Source: an uncultured Clostridia bacterium (GTDB lineage Bacteria > Bacillota > Clostridia > Christensenellales > DTU072). Taken from it: a stretch of 64,000 bases of DNA. This document shows, in pieces, positions 5,027 to 44,120 of the stretch; position 1 is the first letter of the stretch; each line of letters begins with the position of its first letter. The stretch spans positions 161,836-225,835 of the forward strand of contig CALVJA010000001.1 of the NCBI GenBank assembly GCA_944331875.1, read 5' to 3'. A model generated the notes under the pieces. It saw only the letters and a list, made by a program, of their open reading frames with translations, was not told the origin of the DNA and ran no database searches. The translations under genes were made by a program, and so were the position numbers.

Positions 5027-5092
5027 TGAAATTATTTTGCGCAAAATTATTTCACTTGCAACGCAAGCCGCATAACGCGGCTTGCGTTGCAA
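5027..5092 (+). repeat. short copy of the TTATTTCAC-hairpin intergenic repeat family
   Basis: TGAAATTATTTTGC/GCAAAATTATTTCA near-perfect inverted repeat (5027-5054, one T-T mismatch) containing TTATTTCAC (5047-5055). It is followed by a perfect 16-bp hairpin, TTGCAACGCAAGCCGC-ataac-GCGGCTTGCGTTGCAA (5056-5092). Same motif grammar as the copies at 18078, 35385 and 44057. Confidence 0.7.
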
Positions 5093-5195: not shown

Positions 5196-6467
5196 ATGAA
5201 CAAGATCATAAAACTTTCCGGGGGGCTGACGCTCGTGTTGAACGAAATGGCGTCGACCAGGAGTGTAGCCATAGGAGTATACGTGGGCTGCGGGGCGGAC
5301 TACGAATCCGCTCGGACGTCGGGGATATCGCATTTTATAGAGCACATGCTTTTCAAGGGCACCGAAAAAAGGACGGCTTTCGACATAGCGAGGGAAGCGG
5401 AATCGAAGGGGGTGCAGATGAACGCGTTCACGTCGCGGCAGATGACCTCTTTCTATACGGTTTCCACCGACGAACATGCGGGCGAATGCATGGAACTACT
5501 GTCCGATATTTTTTTCAATTCAGTATTCGATCCGGCGGAGGCGGAGCGCGAAAAGGGCGTTGTCATCGAGGAGATACACAGAAGTCTCGATGACCCCGAC
5601 GACGTGTGTTTCGACGCGCTGTCGGCGGCGGTCTACGGAGATACGCCGAAAGGGCGCCCGATACTGGGATCGGTGCAAAACGTGCGTTCGTTCACCCCGG
5701 ATATGATGAGGGAATACATGAAGACCCATTACAGCGCGCGAAACACCGTCATATCGATCGCGGGTAGAATCAGCGAAGCGGAGGCGGAGGATCTTGCCGA
5801 AAAGTATTTTGCGGAAAAGTTTTCCTCTCTCGGCGAATGCGCGCGGCTCGAGAAAATTATGCCGAGATACGGTTCGGTTTCCACGCAAAAAGATATGGAA
5901 CAGGCGGTGATGGCGTTCGCGTTTCCGGGCTACGGCTATTCTTCTCCGAACGCTATACCGCTCAAGATCGCGGCGAATATTTTGGGCGGCGGAATGTCGT
6001 CGAGGCTTTTCCAAAGCGTCAGGGAACAAAAAGGGCTTGCGTACGACGTGTATTCGATATCGGGTACCGCCAAAGAAGACGGTATATTCGAAATATACGT
6101 CGGGACCAATCCCTCGAGCGTTGAGGAAGCGGTCAAAACGATAGCGGCGGAGATAGAGTCTTTGCGCTCGAAAGGTATCACCGAAGATGAGCTCGGCAAA
6201 GCGAAAGAGCAGATGAAAACTTCGCAGGTGCTCGCCTCGGAGACGGCGCAGTATATGATGCGCGCGGCGGGCAGAGCATATATTTTGTCCGGAAACGGCT
6301 ACGACCTCGACGAATCGCTTGCGGAGATCTCCGCGGTCACCGAGGAGGACGTCGAGCGCGTCGTTTCGGAGTGTTTGGATCCGGACAAAGCGTCCTCGTC
6401 TTTTGTCGCCAAGGACGCGTCCGTTGACATCGGGGAGCTCATTCGCGGTTCCCGGGAGGGAGTATGA
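5196..6467 (+). CDS. M16 family zinc peptidase (pitrilysin/insulinase-like)
   Basis: Inverted zinc motif HFIEH in HFIEHMLFKG. Start moved from the track ORF (5082) to the ATG at 5196, which follows a GAAGGAG RBS. About 423 aa. Confidence 0.85.
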   Translation: MNKIIKLSGGLTLVLNEMASTRSVAIGVYVGCGADYESARTSGISHFIEHMLFKGTEKRTAFDIAREAESKGVQMNAFTSRQMTSFYTVSTDEHAGECMELLSDIFFNSVFDPAEAEREKGVVIEEIHRSLDDPDDVCFDALSAAVYGDTPKGRPILGSVQNVRSFTPDMMREYMKTHYSARNTVISIAGRISEAEAEDLAEKYFAEKFSSLGECARLEKIMPRYGSVSTQKDMEQAVMAFAFPGYGYSSPNAIPLKIAANILGGGMSSRLFQSVREQKGLAYDVYSISGTAKEDGIFEIYVGTNPSSVEEAVKTIAAEIESLRSKGITEDELGKAKEQMKTSQVLASETAQYMMRAAGRAYILSGNGYDLDESLAEISAVTEEDVERVVSECLDPDKASSSFVAKDASVDIGELIRGSREGV

Positions 6468-18077: not shown

Positions 18078-18290
18078 CAAAATCCGCGAATAAAAGCATG
18101 GGTGTGTAAGATGTATATTTTGATTGAGCATTCAGCAAAACTTCTAGCGGATTTTATTTCACAAATTGAAACTTTGAGGCAAAGTTTCAATTTATTTCAC
18201 AATACGACCCCGCGGGGTCGTATTATTTCACAATTTTGCTACGCAAAATTATTTCATTCATTTGCGTCCGAATTGTCGGACGCAAATGAT
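18078..18290 (+). repeat. long copy 1 of a modular structured repeat: 5-prime stem domain plus four hairpins separated by TTATTTCACAA linkers
   Basis: AAAATCCGC (18079-18087) pairs with GCGGATTTT (18147-18155) around a 59-nt interior. Linkers TTATTTCACAA at 18154, 18192 and 18223, with variant TTATTTCATTC at 18249. Hairpins at 18165-18191 (12 bp), 18203-18222 (8 bp), 18234-18248 (6 bp) and 18260-18287 (12 bp). Homologous to 35385-35618. Confidence 0.8.
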
Positions 18291-18877
18291 TTTCTTCTTT
18301 TTATAGCGGAAACGATATTTTTAATATTATCGTCGAACTCGGGCATCACCAGCTGTATAGCTATTTCCTCCGCCGCGGCGAGGATACATACAGAGGTGAT
18401 GCAATATATAAGTATATCTTCGGTGCCTTGGGCCGCGCACATCGAATAGAAGAAGGGGATGAGATAGAATAATATCATCCCGATCTTGTTGCCCGCGGTA
18501 TGCAGCATCGCGAATTTTTTGAAGCGTATGCCCGTAACGACCGCGCCCAAAACCCTCATCAGGAAGAACGCTATCACTATGCCGAGCGTGCCGTAGTTAA
18601 GGGGATCCATATTGTAGAACACGACGAACGTGCCCGTCAGGGTCAATAGAACGTCGCCCACGGTGTCCATGGTTGAGCCGAAGCGGCTTTCGACCTTCAG
18701 CGCGCGGGCGATGACGCCGTCGAAAAGGTCGCTGACGCCTGCCAGCGCATATATTACATAGAATGCGGTTTCGTATGCGGGTATAAAAACTATCGCTATC
18801 GCGGCGGCTATGCGGTATACGGTCAGGATATTGGGGACCTGCTTCAGGAGCGCGCCGAAAAGATCTTTTATTTTCAT
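18254..18877 (-). CDS. CDP-alcohol phosphatidyltransferase family protein (PgsA-like)
   Basis: 207-aa membrane protein with the full motif D-x2-DG-x2-AR-x8-G-x3-D-x3-D in DLFDGVIARALKVESRFGSTMDTVGD. The last ~12 codons and the stop lie inside repeat copy 1. Confidence 0.8.
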   Translation of the reverse strand: MKIKDLFGALLKQVPNILTVYRIAAAIAIVFIPAYETAFYVIYALAGVSDLFDGVIARALKVESRFGSTMDTVGDVLLTLTGTFVVFYNMDPLNYGTLGIVIAFFLMRVLGAVVTGIRFKKFAMLHTAGNKIGMILFYLIPFFYSMCAAQGTEDILIYCITSVCILAAAEEIAIQLVMPEFDDNIKNIVSAIKRRKSFASDNSDANE

Positions 18878-21636: not shown

Positions 21637-22935
21637 ATGATATTCGATCCCAATTACGAATGTATGCCCGCGGACGAAATGCGCGCGCTGCAGCTGGAAC
21701 GCCTGCAAAAGATCGTCGCGTACGCATATGAGCGCGTGCCTTTTTACAGAAAAAAATACGACGAGGCAGGAGTCAAACCGAGCGATATAAAGACTTTGGA
21801 CGACATCAGGAAACTTCCCTTCACCGTAAAGACGGACCTGAGGGACAACTACCCTTACGGACTTTTGGCGGTAGATAAAAAGGAATTGAAACGTATCCAC
21901 GCCTCCTCCGGTACCTCGGGAAAGCCGACGGTAGTGTGCTACACCGAAAAGGACATGGATATTTGGTCGGACTGCTGCGCGCGCCTTGCCGCGGCAGCGG
22001 GCGTGAACGGCGACGACATCGTCCAGGTATCCTTCGGTTACGGGCTGTTCACCGGCGCTCTCGGGATGCACCAGGGCTGTGAAAAACTGGGCGCCGCGAT
22101 AATCCCCGCCTCCAGCGGCAACACCGAGCGGCAGGTGATGTTATTGAAAGACCTCGAGGCCACCGTCTTGGTATGCACGCCGTCGTACGCGCTGTATATA
22201 GGCGAGATAATGGAGAAGATGGGTTATTCTCCGAAAGACTTAAAACTCAGGATCGGGCTGTTCGGTTCCGAAGCTTCCACCGACGAAATGCACCGCGAGA
22301 TCGCAAAAAAACTGGGTATATTCACCAACGACAACTACGGGCTGTCGGAACTCATAGGTCCCGGCGTGAGCGGAGAATGCACCGAAAAGTGCGGTATGCA
22401 CATAAACGAAGACCATTTTTACCCCGAAGTTTTGGATCCCGAGACTTTCGAACCCGTCCCGGACGGCGAATACGGCGAACTCGTTTTGACGTCGCTGACC
22501 AAAGAGGGTATGCCCGTCATCCGCTACAGAACGAAGGACATCACCGCGCTCGACCACACCCCCTGCAAATGCGGCAGGACCACCGCGCGTATGGCAAAGC
22601 TAAGGGGAAGAACGGACGATATGCTGATAATCCGCGGCGTAAACGTCTTCCCGTCACAAATTGAGGGCGTTCTGATGAACATGCCCGAGGTGGGCGGACA
22701 GTACGAGATAATCGTCACGCGCGAAGGGTATATGGACAAGTTGGAAGTGAGAGTGGAAGTCGCGGACGGGGGGTATCTGACCGATTTCAACAAACTCGAG
22801 GAGCTTCGCGCGAAGATAAAACACAATCTGAGGACGGTATTGCAGCTGGACGCGGCGGTAAAGCTCGTCGAACCGCTGTCGCTGAAGCGCTACGAGGGAA
22901 AATCCAAGCGCGTCACGGATCTCAGAAAGCTTTGA
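21637..22935 (+). CDS. paaK: phenylacetate--CoA ligase family protein (PaaK-like aryl-acetate CoA ligase), paralog 1
   Basis: 432 aa. The N-terminal LQLERLQKIVAYAYERVPFYRKKYDEAG, the LPFTVKTDLRDNYP block and the AMP-binding SSGTSGKPT are all typical of PaaK. Confidence 0.85.
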   Translation: MIFDPNYECMPADEMRALQLERLQKIVAYAYERVPFYRKKYDEAGVKPSDIKTLDDIRKLPFTVKTDLRDNYPYGLLAVDKKELKRIHASSGTSGKPTVVCYTEKDMDIWSDCCARLAAAAGVNGDDIVQVSFGYGLFTGALGMHQGCEKLGAAIIPASSGNTERQVMLLKDLEATVLVCTPSYALYIGEIMEKMGYSPKDLKLRIGLFGSEASTDEMHREIAKKLGIFTNDNYGLSELIGPGVSGECTEKCGMHINEDHFYPEVLDPETFEPVPDGEYGELVLTSLTKEGMPVIRYRTKDITALDHTPCKCGRTTARMAKLRGRTDDMLIIRGVNVFPSQIEGVLMNMPEVGGQYEIIVTREGYMDKLEVRVEVADGGYLTDFNKLEELRAKIKHNLRTVLQLDAAVKLVEPLSLKRYEGKSKRVTDLRKL

Positions 22936-25282: not shown

Positions 25283-26584
25283 ATGCAGTATTTCAACGAA
25301 CGCGCGGAGAGGATGTCGAAAGACGAAAAACACGCTCTCCAGTCGGAGCGGCTCAAAAAAGTCGTAAAGCTGGCATTCGATTCGTGCAAACCTTACAGGG
25401 CGAAAATGGACGCCGCTGGCGTTACCCCGGACGACATCAAATCCATCGACGACATCGTAAAACTGCCTTTTACCACGAAGCAGGATATGCGCGACAACTA
25501 TCCTTTCGGGATGTTCTCCGCGCCGATGGACGACATCGTCAGGATACACGCGTCGTCGGGCACCACGGGAAAACTTACCGTCGCGGGAAGCACCCAACAC
25601 GACCTTGACGACTGGACGGAGGCTGTGGCGCGCGGCATGGTATCCGCGGGCGTTACCAAAAAATCCGTCGTCCACGTCGCATACGGCTACGGACTGTTCA
25701 CGGGAGGACTCGGCGCGCACGACGGCGCAACGCTCATCGGCGCCGCCGTTGTTCCCGCATCCGCAGGGAATACCGCAAGGCAGCTTATGCTTATAAAGGA
25801 TTTCAAAGCGGACACGCTATGCTGCACTCCGTCGTATGCGGTATACCTTGCCGACGAGTTCAAAAAGGCGGGTATCCCCGTAAGCGATCTGAGCCTAAAG
25901 CAGGGATTTTTCGGGGCGGAGCCGTGGAGCGAGGAGATGCGCGTGAAGATCGAGGAAGGCTTGGGTCTGAAAGCGCACGACATCTACGGACTAAGCGAGA
26001 TATCCGGTCCCGGCGTCGCCTGCGAATGCTCTTATCAGGCGGGTCCCCATGTGCAGGACGACCTGTTCTACCCGGAGATAATCGATCCGAACACTCTCGA
26101 ACGGGTCCCCGACGGTGAGCGCGGCGAACTGGTGTTCACTACGATCAACAAAACGGGAATGCCTTTGATACGTTACAGGACGCGCGACATCTGCTCGATA
26201 ATATCCGAGCCGTGCAAGTGCGGCAGGACCACCGTCAGGCTCGGCAGGATCACCGGGAGAACCGACGACATGCTGATAATCCGCGGAGTGAACGTCTTCC
26301 CGTCGCAGATAGAAAGCGTGCTTATAAAGGATAAGCGCATAAGCCCCCATTACCACATCACCATCGACAGGATAAACAACCTAGACGTGATGATGATAGA
26401 AGTGGAGCTGCAGCGCGACATCGCTTTCGACGAGATACAGGCGATAGAAGCGATGCAGAAAAAACTCACCGCCGACATCGCGTCCGCGATAGGCGTCAGC
26501 GCAAAGGTAAAACTCGTACAGTGCGGCACCGTTCCGAGGTCGGAAGGCAAAGCCGTATTCGTCACCGACAACAGAAAGATCTGA
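25283..26584 (+). CDS. paaK: phenylacetate--CoA ligase family protein, paralog 2
   Basis: 433 aa, same block structure as paralog 1 (LPFTTKQDMRDNYP, SSGTTGKLT). Roughly half the residues are identical by eye. Confidence 0.85.
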   Translation: MQYFNERAERMSKDEKHALQSERLKKVVKLAFDSCKPYRAKMDAAGVTPDDIKSIDDIVKLPFTTKQDMRDNYPFGMFSAPMDDIVRIHASSGTTGKLTVAGSTQHDLDDWTEAVARGMVSAGVTKKSVVHVAYGYGLFTGGLGAHDGATLIGAAVVPASAGNTARQLMLIKDFKADTLCCTPSYAVYLADEFKKAGIPVSDLSLKQGFFGAEPWSEEMRVKIEEGLGLKAHDIYGLSEISGPGVACECSYQAGPHVQDDLFYPEIIDPNTLERVPDGERGELVFTTINKTGMPLIRYRTRDICSIISEPCKCGRTTVRLGRITGRTDDMLIIRGVNVFPSQIESVLIKDKRISPHYHITIDRINNLDVMMIEVELQRDIAFDEIQAIEAMQKKLTADIASAIGVSAKVKLVQCGTVPRSEGKAVFVTDNRKI

Positions 26585-34823: not shown

Positions 34824-34848
34824 CCCGTTTGACAGAACGGGCTTTTTT
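34824..34848 (+). terminator. rho-independent terminator of ftsY
   Basis: CCCGTT-tgacag-AACGGG-C followed by TTTTTT. Confidence 0.75.
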
Positions 34849-34980
34849 CATATGGTGGGAATATATATTCGCAAAAATAAAATCATTCCGACATCTTGCC
34901 GTATTTTTGCGGCTCTTTTCCGCAAAATCTACGACCTCCTTCGGAGGCGGATCGGTCGAGTATGGTATACACTTCCCTCC

Positions 34981-35285
34981 CGTTTTGCGAAAAATAGCTT
35001 GCAAATCTACGGCAATCTGCCGCCAAACACCTCATTCGAAGAAAACACTTATACAGGCAAACCGCTGTTCACGGTTTTATGTGAAAACTGTGATCCTGCA
35101 CTTTGGAGAGCAAAACGGGGCGCGAACGGCGCATAGTCCCGCTATAGCGCCGCCCGCGTTTCGTGCGATACAACGCAAAATAGTCTGCAAATCGGCGCCA
35201 AACACGCTTTTCACTGCGCCCAAATACATAGTAAACTGTATTCTTCTTTAGAGGCAAACACTAGCATAGGCGAATCGCTGTTCAT
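34981..35285 (+). repeat. two diverged direct repeats inside the long ftsY-rnfC non-coding region
   Basis: Unit B (34981-35072) and unit C (35157-35285) share, in the same order: CGTTT..GCG, AAAATAG(CT/TC)TGCAAATC, GCCAAACAC, and AAACACT..ATA.AGGC.AA.CGCTGTTCA. Indels of about 10 and about 40 nt separate these blocks. Confidence 0.6.
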
Positions 35286-35384
35286 ACTTAAATAAAATCG
35301 ATATAAAAAAATAATATAAAGATCAATACCACGTCTTCAGCCGTAGATTTTCGGGTGATTTTTCGTGAACGAAGCGACCCTGAG

Positions 35385-35618
35385 CAAAATCCGCAGACAT
35401 AAGCAAGAGTGTATAAGATGTATTTTTTGATTGAGTATTCCGTAAAACTCTTAGCGGATTTTATTTCACAAATTGAAACTTTGCCCGCGAAGTTTCAATT
35501 TATATCACAATGCGACCCTGCGGGTTGCATTATTTCACAATTCCGCTTGCGGAATTATATCACCTTTTTGTGGCGGCATTCGCCGCCACAAAATTCGGCG
35601 CAGCCGAATTATTTTCGG
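35385..35618 (+). repeat. long copy 2 of the modular structured repeat (5-prime stem domain plus hairpin array with TTATTTCACAA linkers)
   Basis: AAAATCCGC (35386-35394) pairs with GCGGATTTT (35454-35462) around a 59-nt interior. Linkers at 35461 (TTATTTCACAA), 35500 (TTATATCACAA), 35530 (TTATTTCACAA) and 35555 (TTATATCACC). Hairpins at 35472-35499, 35511-35529, 35541-35554 and 35565-35593, plus an extra hairpin at 35594-35608. Confidence 0.8.
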
Positions 35619-35620
35619 TC

Positions 35621-35649
35621 TTTACAGTTTAAGGATGTTAAGGTATAAT
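35621..35649 (+). promoter_or_regulatory. sigma-A-type promoter for the rnf operon
   Basis: TTTACA (35621-35626), 17 nt, TATAAT (35644-35649). The rnfC ATG is only 9 nt beyond the -10 element. Confidence 0.55.
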
Positions 35650-41224: not shown

Positions 41225-43057
41225 ATGAACAAAAAAATCGTTGCTTTATCGCTGATACTCGTCATGGCGGCGGCACTCGCCGTCGGCTGTACCGACAAAA
41301 CGGAGACGGGTTCGATATCGGATACATTCCTGAATTTCTCGTCGACGGGCGAGTACACTTCGGCGACCAAAAAACTCACTCTTTCCTCGGGACAGACTTT
41401 CACGAGCTACGACGCCGACAGCGGCGTTTTCGTAATACGCGAGGATGTGGCGCTCGGAGAAGCGCTCTACACGCGCTACGGGCTCGCTTCCGAGGACGAA
41501 GTGTATTGGGAACCGGGCGGCGGCAGCGGTTTTACGCAGGTTTTGGATATTAACGGCGACCACGCGATAGTCGTAGTGAACGCACTTGTCGACGGTGTGG
41601 ACACGGCATATGTCGGAGTTGTCAGATTCAGGGGACCTTTAGGACCTCTGCAATACGGTTTCGTACATCAGTTCGCGCCGCTCACGCAGCAGATCTCGTT
41701 TTTGAATGACAGATACCTGATAATGTTCGGCGACATGGCGAACGCGGGTACGAGTTCGGGGTACGGATATACTTACGCCACGATCTACGATTACACCGCG
41801 GCGAATCAGCTTTTGGAGGTCGCCAGGGTCTCGGGTATCGATAACGGCACCACTTTCCAGCTGCACGACGGCTACCTTGCCGCCGTACACAGCGATTCCG
41901 TCGATTTTTATTATATCGGCGAAACGGACGGCAGCGGATATCTGACGGAGAAGATGTCCGTCAGGCTTATTACCGGCTCCCAGTACGTCGAAACGGGGCT
42001 GACTACTTCGGCGTATTATATCGGCGGCGGCTGGTTCATAGTTTCGACTACTTACGCTTCCGAAACGCAGTACGACGGCTACGAGTTCAACAGGACGGAC
42101 GAGGACGGCACCACTTATTTTATGGAGATCCGCAGCGTAAAAGCTTCGATGAATTCTCTGAAAACGTTCCCGACCGAGCGCGTCACGCTCGTAGCGAACC
42201 AATATACATCTTCTTATGTGCGCGGGCTTGCCGACGCTATAACGATAGAGGATGTCTCCGCCGCGGCGACGTGGCAGAATACCTACGCCACGCCGATGAC
42301 CGCGACATCGGAGCTCGTAAAAGACGGGTATTCGATAGTTTACTATTATTACTATTTCTACAACGACGCCGACATGAGCCAAAGGACGTGGTCGACGTCC
42401 TTCCAAATATACGATACCTCCGGGAACGCGACGGTCGCTTCGAATCTGGCGATGCCCGTCGTGTATGCGGACGGATACGGTCTGCAGACGGCGGACCCCA
42501 ACTTCAACATAGCGCTCCGCGACGTCGGCTACAATAACTATACGGACGGAAGCCGCGTGACTCTGACGGCGCTCGATGACCTGAACGGTTATCATAATGC
42601 GTTCATCCATAACGGCGTCATAATATCGTACCGCCAGCATATAGACGCTTCGGGACAGTTTACCTCGAACATGGGCGCCACAGGTGTGGACGGAAAAGTC
42701 ATACTTCCCTATGAATACGATTCGATTTCTCCGTTTTTCGGAAATTACGCCACAGCCTCGATAGTCACCGAGTACGCCGAGGACGGCTCCGTATCGCAGC
42801 AGGCGTTCTACCGCGTGGCAAAAGACGGTGCGACTACGCCGATCCCCGAATGCTATCAGATGAGGAACGGCACATATATCACCAGAAATTCCGCCGGGAA
42901 ATACGGTCTTAATTCCAACTCGGGTGTAGTTTTGATAAGCGCGAACTGCGACGAGGTGTCAACCGTGGACAGGATGTACGCGGACGGAAAAGTGTTCGCA
43001 AGCTCCTATGCGGTCACGGTGGAAAACGGCAGGGGAGTGTTGTATGAGCTCTCCTGA
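41225..43057 (+). CDS. hypothetical lipoprotein, function unknown
   Basis: 610 aa. Signal peptide plus lipobox MNKKIVALSLILVMAAALAVGC. Tyr/Gly/Thr/Asp-rich composition suggests a beta-rich extracellular protein. No family recognised. Confidence 0.7.
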   Translation: MNKKIVALSLILVMAAALAVGCTDKTETGSISDTFLNFSSTGEYTSATKKLTLSSGQTFTSYDADSGVFVIREDVALGEALYTRYGLASEDEVYWEPGGGSGFTQVLDINGDHAIVVVNALVDGVDTAYVGVVRFRGPLGPLQYGFVHQFAPLTQQISFLNDRYLIMFGDMANAGTSSGYGYTYATIYDYTAANQLLEVARVSGIDNGTTFQLHDGYLAAVHSDSVDFYYIGETDGSGYLTEKMSVRLITGSQYVETGLTTSAYYIGGGWFIVSTTYASETQYDGYEFNRTDEDGTTYFMEIRSVKASMNSLKTFPTERVTLVANQYTSSYVRGLADAITIEDVSAAATWQNTYATPMTATSELVKDGYSIVYYYYYFYNDADMSQRTWSTSFQIYDTSGNATVASNLAMPVVYADGYGLQTADPNFNIALRDVGYNNYTDGSRVTLTALDDLNGYHNAFIHNGVIISYRQHIDASGQFTSNMGATGVDGKVILPYEYDSISPFFGNYATASIVTEYAEDGSVSQQAFYRVAKDGATTPIPECYQMRNGTYITRNSAGKYGLNSNSGVVLISANCDEVSTVDRMYADGKVFASSYAVTVENGRGVLYELS

Positions 43058-44060
43058 TATCGTTACGAAATTAGCGGGCGCCGAGGCTTTGGACGAGGGC
43101 GCCGCGATAATAAAAAGCGGCGGCGTCGTCGCTTTTCCCACGGAGACAGTGTACGGGCTCGGCGCCGACGCGTTCAACGAGGAGGCGGTAGCGAAGATAT
43201 TCGAGGCTAAAGGCAGACCCCAGGACAATCCGCTTATCGTACATATCCCGTCCGAAAGTTGGCTCGGGCGCGTCGCGGCATACGTCCCGGACGCCGCCTA
43301 TGAACTCTTCGACGCGTTCAGTCCGGGACCTCTGACGGTGATTTTACCTAAACGCAGCGATCTGCCGCTTGTAACTACTGCGGGGCTCGAAACTGTAGGT
43401 ATCAGGATCCCGAACAACGATATCGCTTTGGAACTCATCCGCCGCGCGGACACGCCCGTGGCGGCGCCGAGCGCCAATACGAGCGGGAGAGTTAGTCCCA
43501 CAAGGGCTCGGGACGTATACGAAGATATGGCGGGGCGGATACCGCTTATTCTGGACGGCGGCAGGACGGATGTCGGCATAGAATCCACGGTCGTGACGCT
43601 TGCGGCGGACACCCCGACAATACTGCGCCCCGGCGCGGTCACGGCGGAGATGATCTCCGAGGTCCTGGGGGAAGCTGTATATTTCAAGGGCAAAGTCAAA
43701 GTTGCCGAAGCGCCCGGCATGAAGTACACTCATTATGCGCCGCGAGTTCCGTGCATAGGCGCGCTGACCCCGCTTGACGCCTTAGCGGCGGCGAAGGAAC
43801 GCGATAATTCCGTCGTCGTCGGCGAAAGCGGGTTCGTCCGCGAAGCGGAAGCGCTCGGCTCGCGGGTCGTGGACCTCGGCGACACCCCCGAAAAATGTAT
43901 GCAAAACGCATTCGCGGCGTTGCGCGAGGCGGAAAAGATCTATAAATTTATCGTAATCGAGCACTTCGAAGGGAAAAAGGGGTATTACGCGCTGAACAAC
44001 AGATTGTCGAAGTCCTACGGAGGAAAAGTTTTTTGCGGCGAAATCGCCGCAAAAAAGTGA
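43044..44060 (+). CDS. tsaC: L-threonylcarbamoyladenylate synthase (Sua5/YwlC type, YrdC + Sua5 domains)
   Basis: YrdC block VAFPTETVYGLGADA and SANTSGR, plus a C-terminal Sua5 domain. Start moved to the ATG at 43044 after GGGGAG. Overlaps the upstream gene by 14 nt. Confidence 0.88.
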   Translation: MSSPDIVTKLAGAEALDEGAAIIKSGGVVAFPTETVYGLGADAFNEEAVAKIFEAKGRPQDNPLIVHIPSESWLGRVAAYVPDAAYELFDAFSPGPLTVILPKRSDLPLVTTAGLETVGIRIPNNDIALELIRRADTPVAAPSANTSGRVSPTRARDVYEDMAGRIPLILDGGRTDVGIESTVVTLAADTPTILRPGAVTAEMISEVLGEAVYFKGKVKVAEAPGMKYTHYAPRVPCIGALTPLDALAAAKERDNSVVVGESGFVREAEALGSRVVDLGDTPEKCMQNAFAALREAEKIYKFIVIEHFEGKKGYYALNNRLSKSYGGKVFCGEIAAKK

Positions 44061-44120
44061 AATAATTTTTCCGCGCAAAATTATTTCACTTTTTACGGCG
44101 GTGTTCGCCGTCGTAAAAAA
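44057..44120 (+). repeat. short copy of the TTATTTCAC-hairpin intergenic repeat family
   Basis: A 13-bp inverted repeat, GTGAAATAATTTT (44057-44069) / AAAATTATTTCAC (44077-44089). It is followed by a 12-bp hairpin with one G-U pair, TTTTTACGGCGG-tgttcg-CCGTCGTAAAAA (44090-44119). Overlaps the tsaC stop codon. Confidence 0.7.

Follow-up and report, generated by a model that had tools for sequence, protein, structure and literature searches.

A dispersed structured repeat related to Gut-1 upstream of the rnfC promoter in an uncultured Clostridia bacterium

[quoted passage not shown] 2010, PMC2864571). Its curation as a small RNA (sRNA) lists 18 positions that covary (Weinberg et al. 2010, PMC2864571; Rfam RF01706). 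The consensus reads CAaUGAAAU-hairpin-GUGAAAU-hairpin-GUGAAAU-hairpin-UGUGAAAU. We found no later work on Gut-1 in the literature searched; the motif has been an orphan since 2010, and its relatives can now be placed in assembled Clostridia genomes.

Dispersed non-coding intergenic repeats built from varying numbers of hairpin modules also include BOX in Streptococcus pneumoniae and REP/BIME in enterobacteria, which are co-transcribed with neighbouring genes and can stabilise or terminate transcripts. The element described here is likewise dispersed, non-coding, modular and intergenic, but it has no sequence similarity to either, and whereas the palindrome is what is conserved in REP, here the palindromes vary and the linker is conserved. 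REP elements that go with a RAYT gene have a 5′ GTAG-type tetranucleotide at their conserved palindrome; we know of no RAYT-like partner for the element.

We analysed a 64-kb stretch of DNA (the window) from an uncultured Clostridia lineage. It carries the element at four sites, a count for this window alone: two full copies, copy 1 (18078-18259) and copy 2 (35385-35564), and two short palindromic copies, A (~5027-5092) and D (44027-44119), all on the + strand. Copy 2 begins with X (CAAAATCCGC, 35385-35394), the 5′ arm of a long-range helix, which pairs with X′ (GCGGATTTT, 35454-35462) across a 59-nt core (35395-35453); X′ runs into the first linker, ATTTCAC, at 35463, the two together spanning 35454-35469. 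The closed X-core-X′ domain of ~78 nt thus lies 5′ of an array made of hairpin 1 (13 bp, 35470-35501, with the wobble T35482-G35489), the linker ATATCAC (35502-35508), hairpin 2 (10 bp, 35509-35531, with the wobble G35514-T35526), the linker ATTTCAC (35532-35538), hairpin 3 (7 bp, 35539-35556) and a last linker, ATATCAC (35557-35563), which ends the unit shared with copy 1. Read with their flanks, the linkers of the full copies are TTATWTCACAA. Two further GC-rich hairpins follow, the locus-specific hairpin 4 (TTTTGTGGCGGC/GCCGCCACAAAA, 35566-35593) and hairpin 5, an extra hairpin (TTCGGCGCAGCCGAA, 35594-35608) followed by ATTTTCGG, which the terminator scan placed at 35592-35610. The rnfC promoter (TTTACA-17-TATAAT, 35621-35649, score 11/12) is a neighbour outside the repeat, its -35 box lying 2-3 nt beyond the last hairpin. 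The anatomy described in the original prediction, including both wobble pairs, the extra hairpin and the adjoining promoter, was all recovered in the sequence. That prediction had also drawn an inner stem within the 5′ domain of both copies, which is a weak point: the stem is not conserved from one copy to the other, copy 1 needs two G-U pairs and one mismatch to form it, and the minimum-free-energy fold of copy 1 consists of other pairs.

Copy 1 has the same X-core-X′ domain, three hairpins and four linkers, and is 87% identical to copy 2 across the first 99 nt. Among the sequences searched, the 59-nt core is found in these two copies only (~84% identity), and its internal pairing is not conserved between them. 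The hairpins differ by compensatory changes, one in hairpin 2 (A-T/G-C) and two pairs in hairpin 3 (TT/AA versus CC/GG). Copy 1 sits where two genes converge, one for an ABC-2 permease on the + strand and one for a CDP-alcohol phosphatidyltransferase on the minus strand. The last 15 codons of the minus-strand phosphatidyltransferase ORF (18254-18877) consist of an A-rich run and the terminator hairpin that follows copy 1, and its TGA stop lies inside the last linker of copy 1 (AATGAAAT), so the insertion of copy 1 may have remodelled the C-terminus of this protein.

The short copies have a different layout. Short copy A consists of the palindrome TGAAATTATTTTGCGCAAAATTATTTCA, in which a left-type linker is paired with a right-type linker, then a 15-bp hairpin and then a promoter. 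Short copy D, which lies upstream of rpiB in the Sua5-rpiB gap, comprises a hairpin, the 18-bp palindrome GTGAAATAA-hairpin-TTATTTCAC and a further hairpin (44090-44119) containing a G-T wobble. Left-type GTGAAAT/TGAAAT pairs with right-type ATTTCAC across a small hairpin in both. The hairpins flanking the palindrome of short copy D have a T-run on the 5′ side and an A-run on the 3′ side, and so form no terminator on either strand. The Sua5 ORF (43008-44060) extends through the first of these hairpins and stops at the TAA of GTGAAATAA; the Sua5 tails of relatives are different and shorter.

The anatomy of the repeat exceeds chance expectation by a wide margin. The window contains six instances of TTATWTCACA against 0.10 expected, all on the + strand and all within the two full copies, and the full copies fold on the + strand with z-scores of -7.55 (copy 2) and -8.07 (copy 1); the minus strand folds nearly as well (-6.45).

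To relate the element to known RNA families, we searched the window with Rfam. At gathering thresholds there was no match anywhere in the window. In E-value mode both full copies matched one family, Gut-1 (RF01706), each on the minus strand: copy 2 scored 36.5 bits (35565-35458, E = 8e-6 locally) and copy 1 30.9 bits (18298-18189, E = 2e-4), below the Gut-1 gathering cut-off of 50 bits, and the matches span all 77 model positions. A bona fide Gut-1 locus (L173), used as a positive control, scored 60.1 bits, while its adjoining mirror arm (363-276) scored 35.1 bits on the opposite strand, a value comparable to those of the window copies. Gut-1 is defined by at least three variable hairpins split by GUGAWAU, and each full copy has three hairpins and four linkers; these read GUGAWAU on the minus strand and AUWUCAC on the + strand.

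The mirror-arm score is explained by the layout of full Gut-1 loci, of which the Rfam model spans only the left half. We compared the seed rows of Weinberg et al. (2010) and their flanks with the fetched loci L173, L060 (an Eubacteriales MAG), L081 (a Clostridia MAG) and L252, L276 and L312 (from IMG/VR); the layout, the X:X′ repeat and the loop bias reported below therefore describe a few dozen partly related sequences, hand-transcribed from the supplement, plus a handful of loci. A full locus starts with an A-run/stem/T-run terminator, which often adjoins the end of a tRNA gene or a stop codon. Next comes X, formed by a degenerate version of the first linker and the 5′ arm of hairpin 1, then a left arm of (GUGAWAU-hairpin) x3, hairpin 4, and X′, in which the 3′ arm of hairpin 1 is repeated together with the complement of linker 1; a right arm of (AUWUCAC-hairpin) x3 or x4 follows. 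In L060 the arms are separated by a central region of 110 nt. Of the 27 sequences tested, 15 have a recognisable X:X′ inverted repeat, which measures 11-15 nt and varies in sequence by locus (e.g. TTATATTCGCC, AGTGAAATTTGCCC, AACGAAATAAATCCCT, ACGAAATCCACCC). The window copies have AACAAAATCCGC/GCGGATTTTATT, and 13 further sequences have analogous repeats of other sequence. The Rfam model thus covers only one of the two mirror-symmetric halves of a locus that a covarying X:X′ helix closes.

The window copies share this closing helix 5′ of a right arm, with a sequence that covaries between loci, and X of copy 2 is the counterpart of the degenerate linker 1 plus stem of full Gut-1 loci. Since the X:X′ homology aligns the + strand of the window with the curated strand of the family, the hairpin array corresponds to the right arm, the 5′ domain to X-core-X′, and the minus-strand Rfam matches are mirror hits; the window arrays do not have the modelled, left-arm orientation on the family strand. 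Other likenesses to Gut-1 are the hairpins of free sequence joined by the invariant GUGAWAU or its complement AUWUCAC, the intergenic sites after genes and the gut Clostridia hosts. The window copies differ from Gut-1 in that their stems are two to three times longer, they have only the right arm, which Rfam does not model, a novel 59-nt core stands where the left arm would be, the X side has no A-run/T-run terminator (we found no A-run/stem/T-run structure directly upstream of 18078 or 35385), and the loops depart from the GNA rule of the family. Judged by these sequence features, the element is a sub-threshold, single-armed, long-stem relative of Gut-1. What appears to be new is the single arm, the long stems, the core and the altered loops; the Gut-1 kind itself was already known. 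As far as the searched literature shows, the two-arm architecture, the X:X′ helix and the loop bias would be undescribed.

Searches beyond these loci added little. A blastn comparison of both copies with all fetched loci gave no homologue of the 5′ domain, and no plasmid match for the element was found. Scans of a genome collection and metagenome with the linkers alone used generic patterns, and the matches listed were mostly satellites and chance matches; among those listed, only L027, L060, L081, L119 and L173 looked relevant. In viral contigs, the X′-linker 18-mer gave two matches, both inside coding regions and dismissed as chance, and the three-linker palindromic pattern gave none. In L027 (a Synergistaceae MAG, 2274-2330) and L119 (an unassigned metagenome contig, 5530-5600), TTATATCACAA/TTATTTCAC occur as direct repeats in divergent promoter regions, and the segments between the repeats of L119 are not hairpins; these repeats may be unrelated to Gut-1, or degenerate.

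The original prediction assigned the folding to the + strand from G-U wobble pairs, and the pair that it named in short copy D is present along with the two in copy 2. In the window, the + strand folds better by 2.5-5.9 kcal/mol in three hairpins (the first two of copy 2 and the final one of short copy D) and in both X-core-X′ domains; in the remaining 11 modules the strands do not differ, and no module folds better on the minus strand. This 5-to-0 sign test favours the + strand through G-U pairs and is no more than suggestive. When G-U pairs alone are counted across the family, without special-loop bonuses, the wobbles are balanced (5 versus 5 in left arms, 0 versus 2 in right arms), and therefore the wobble argument is not a family property. 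A comparison of folding energies across the family had given 13 versus 2 in favour of the curated strand; we discarded it as an artefact of special-loop and terminal-mismatch terms, since the signal was gone in the G-U-only count once the loop terms that had driven it were removed. The + strand call survives through the X:X′ helix and the Gut-1 arm order, that is, mainly through the architecture of the locus, and the G-U argument by itself is thin.

We then considered whether the element could work as a trans-acting + strand ncRNA, in which the hairpins would space single-stranded AUUUCAC heptamers (UUAUUUCACAA in the window) that titrate or scaffold an RNA-binding protein, or, as a variant of the same idea, in which the heptamers would pair with GUGAAAU/AUGAAAU in other RNAs. 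Such an RNA would resemble the display of repeated motifs by CsrB/RsmZ or CrcZ. The curation of Gut-1 as an sRNA with covarying positions agrees with this, as do the invariant linkers between variable stems and the + strand preference of the G-U pairs in the window. Left-arm and right-arm linkers are exact complements, which pair with each other in both short copies and in some of the folds predicted, and in one seed group the array is followed by ~100 nt and then a terminator, downstream of a divergent gene. However, no sigma-70-like promoter was found directly upstream of either full copy, and in most Gut-1 seeds the array begins 0-3 nt after a strong terminator. The copies are also insertion-polymorphic with a variable number of modules, both orientations lie side by side, and the wobble count is balanced family-wide. 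We consider a trans-acting RNA unlikely.

The loops provide a second view of strand. When every hairpin is set in the ATWTCAC orientation, 5′-C...G-3′ closes 61 of the 67, and the triloops include 26 of the GNA type (GAA, GCA, GTA) and none of the complementary TNC type. Since this bias is seen in both arms, the asymmetry flips with the arm and does not follow one transcript. Such a pattern would fit recognition as single-stranded DNA (ssDNA): a strand-specific enzyme might recognise each module, ATWTCAC plus a C-GNA-G capped hairpin, on one of the two DNA strands. An HUH/Y1 transposase (cf. REP/RAYT, IS200/IS605) or a primase (cf. ssi signals) would be candidates for this enzyme, which would explain both the spread of the element and the mirror-image arms. 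Mini-hairpins of the type d(GCGNAGC) exceed their RNA counterparts in stability by far, and they mark ssDNA priming sites and the ssDNA promoters of phage N4 (PMC13037366). C-GNA-G capped hairpins on a defined strand are what Gut-1 loci share with these ssi/mini-hairpin DNAs (PMC13037366). The copies are dispersed and insertion-like, one seed contig has at least four Gut-1 units as 240-nt tandem repeats, and all window copies lie on the strand that carries nearly all window genes. The ssiA and ssiB signals of IncQ plasmids are mirror images on opposite strands, as the Gut-1 arms are. Unlike ssi, though, Gut-1 loci are multi-copy, chromosomal, intergenic and without replicon genes.

The window copies themselves fit this ssDNA model poorly. 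Their loops on the ATWTCAC strand are AGG, CGCG, TAC, TGC and CTTG, and do not follow the C-G/GNA or purine-rich rule; the two informative triloops, TAC and TGC, are of the opposite type on the ATTTCAC strand, and the window copies thus lack GNA loops on the expected strand. Furthermore, we saw neither a target-site duplication nor a transposase partner, template switching can preserve the pairing of perfect palindromes without selection, and purine-rich loops, GNRA tetraloops among them, suit RNA too. Because the window arrays break the GNA rule, we keep recognition as ssDNA as a rival and not as the lead, and regard it as rather improbable. We hold as equally doubtful a broader proposal for the family, according to which Gut-1-type loci are two-armed mirror-symmetric elements whose modules act as ssDNA or as a stacked four-way-junction ladder, recognised by a strand-specific enzyme that spreads them through gut Clostridia genomes, with the single-armed window copies and their 59-nt core as a sub-family that shows the arms to be separable; the ladder may form when left and right linkers pair. 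The element does not fit a miniature inverted-repeat transposable element (MITE): its unit has no inverted repeat at the two ends, and the flanks of the full copies (left, ...CCACAA and ...CCTGAG; right, TCATTTGCG and CTTTTTGTG) show no target-site duplication at either.

Next, we compared the locus with its relatives. An exact look-up of the RnfC of the window gave no record. The nearest RnfC is 99% identical and lies on a 2.4-kb contig, and the next nearest are 75-76% identical. The latter relatives keep the downstream synteny rnfCDGEAB ... sua5-rpiB ... V-ATPase, and in these we found no linker motif across ~150 kb of loci and no Gut-1 match at E <= 0.5. In relatives without the element the rnfC promoter (TTTACAGTTT...GTATAAT) is invariant and the sequence further upstream is all different; the rpiB promoter (CTTGTC/A-17-TATACT) is likewise kept, and the Sua5-rpiB gap holds ~25-130 nt of unrelated spacer in place of short copy D. 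Relatives that have the same rnfC and rpiB promoters without the elements indicate that the latter are lineage-specific insertions into terminator-to-promoter gaps, and Gut-1 relatives thus behave as insertion-polymorphic dispersed repeats. The 2.4-kb contig with the 99% identical RnfC, the only conspecific one (L230, coverage 2.5x), begins inside hairpin 4 (L230 1-54), which is consistent with an assembly break at a repeat.

These comparisons also bear on the suggestion, made in the original prediction, that the element regulates the Rnf operon; neither its kinship with Gut-1 nor its dispersed, insertion-like nature was part of that prediction. If it served rnf specifically in cis, it could be an upstream activating or insulating DNA element or a set of Rex decoy sites. 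It would be well placed, given that the element ends so close to the -35 box, and the linker with its flanks reads TTGTGAA/TTCACAA, the consensus half-site of the redox repressor Rex. Against this, the promoter is conserved in relatives without the element, the other copies flank unrelated genes, the linker flanks vary in other Gut-1 family members, and the window holds no full Rex operator (TTGTKAA-N4-TTMACAA gave no match at up to two mismatches). The rnf-specific reading is largely refuted already by these results, and we consider it highly improbable. For annotation of the window, the rnf promoter would be an ordinary one and the element upstream of it a passenger.

From the sequence alone we also set aside several other candidates: DnaA boxes, CRISPR, type III toxin-antitoxin RNA arrays, PUF/FBF sites, boxA/boxB nut sites, ANTAR and K-turns.

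Taken together, we favour, at about even chances, the interpretation that we are dealing with a dispersed structured repeat that belongs to the Gut-1 family and is a passenger with respect to rnf, any role of which would lie in blocking or ending + strand read-through ahead of the rnf promoter and in shielding upstream 3′ ends. The repeating unit is X-core-X′ followed by three ATWTCAC linker-plus-hairpin modules, with the linker fixed, the hairpin sequences free and their pairing kept. It was inserted downstream of one transcription unit and ahead of the promoter of the next, and at this locus would lie outside the rnf control region. The sequence comparisons show the kinship with Gut-1, the multiple copies, the insertion and the orientation relative to the family. 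We infer that RNA polymerase arriving from upstream reads the element on the + strand, on which its stable stem-loops, linkers rich in U (UUAUUUCA) and terminator-like last hairpin would act as a passive block and 3′-end protector. Any effect on rnf would be insulation from upstream read-through, comparable to what REP/BIME or BOX repeats can do. The invariant heptamer is presumably the recognition site of whatever spreads or binds the repeat. An sRNA of no known function would in this way be replaced by testable alternatives, namely a read-through insulator, a protein sponge and an ssDNA substrate.

The ends of the full copies are consistent with a role in ending read-through. Copy 1 is followed by a canonical + strand terminator (18258-18289) and then TTTTCTTCTT, and hairpin 5 plus ATTTTCGG (35592-35610) looks like an intrinsic terminator on the + strand at the end of copy 2; like intrinsic terminators, both have a stem and then a U-tract. 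Hairpins 1-4 differ from intrinsic terminators in having no proper U-tract or a reversed T/A-run polarity. The terminator scan made no call for hairpins 1-3 of copy 2; their AA/TT bases are paired, and so only AUUUCAC, a poor U-tract, follows each stem. Hairpin 4, with its T-run 5′ and A-run 3′, is predicted to be no terminator on either strand. In L060 the right arm (1497-1585) ends 7 nt upstream of the ribosome-binding site and ATG of the next gene, and must therefore be read through there as a 5′ leader and not terminate. The poor U-tracts, the reversed polarity and this read-through all count against a role purely as a terminator. Against a passive element, moreover, stand the strict mirror-symmetric loop bias, a sign of selection that passivity would not explain, and the rating of Gut-1 by Weinberg et al. 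as RNA, likely an independent ncRNA.

The nearest + strand promoter candidate to copy 2, TTGACA-16-TATGGT at 34829-34856, lies 530 nt from it and overlaps the loop of the ftsY terminator; it could drive a ~750-nt transcript ending at hairpin 5. The original prediction had also offered an insulating module and the 3′ part of a transcript that starts in the ftsY-rnfC spacer, either of which may hold. The 535-nt stretch from the ftsY terminator to the element (34850-35384/35385) is non-coding, with no Pfam match for any of its ORFs. This region (34850-35384) has an internal direct repeat of ~190 nt (34988-35071 versus 35174-35284, 71-88% identity in pieces) and folds better than shuffled sequences, with z = -3.6 on the + strand and -2.8 on the minus strand.

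Two features of the wider Gut-1 family were noted alongside. First, a similar terminator (GCACTTGC-loop-GCAAGTGC, flanked by A6 and T6) follows the CCA end of a tRNA in Gut-1 seed rows, L081, L173 and L276, and since so many loci start with it, the terminator seems to move with the element. Second, at least two independent Gut-1 loci are followed by a same-strand gene for a four-helix-bundle protein of the 23S rRNA intervening-sequence/Avd-like family (L173 436-720; BAAV01000249 and BAAY01000359, Weinberg supplement). The gene in L173 carries in-frame stops, and in BAAY01000359 a deletion fuses the right-arm hairpin to the gene. The window has no such gene, and a link of the element to it was dropped.

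Finally, a 119-nt direct repeat of 76% identity (22561-22679 versus 26210-26328), unrelated to the element, sits inside two ORFs of 432-433 amino acids (21637-22935 and 25283-26584), which are probably paralogous genes.
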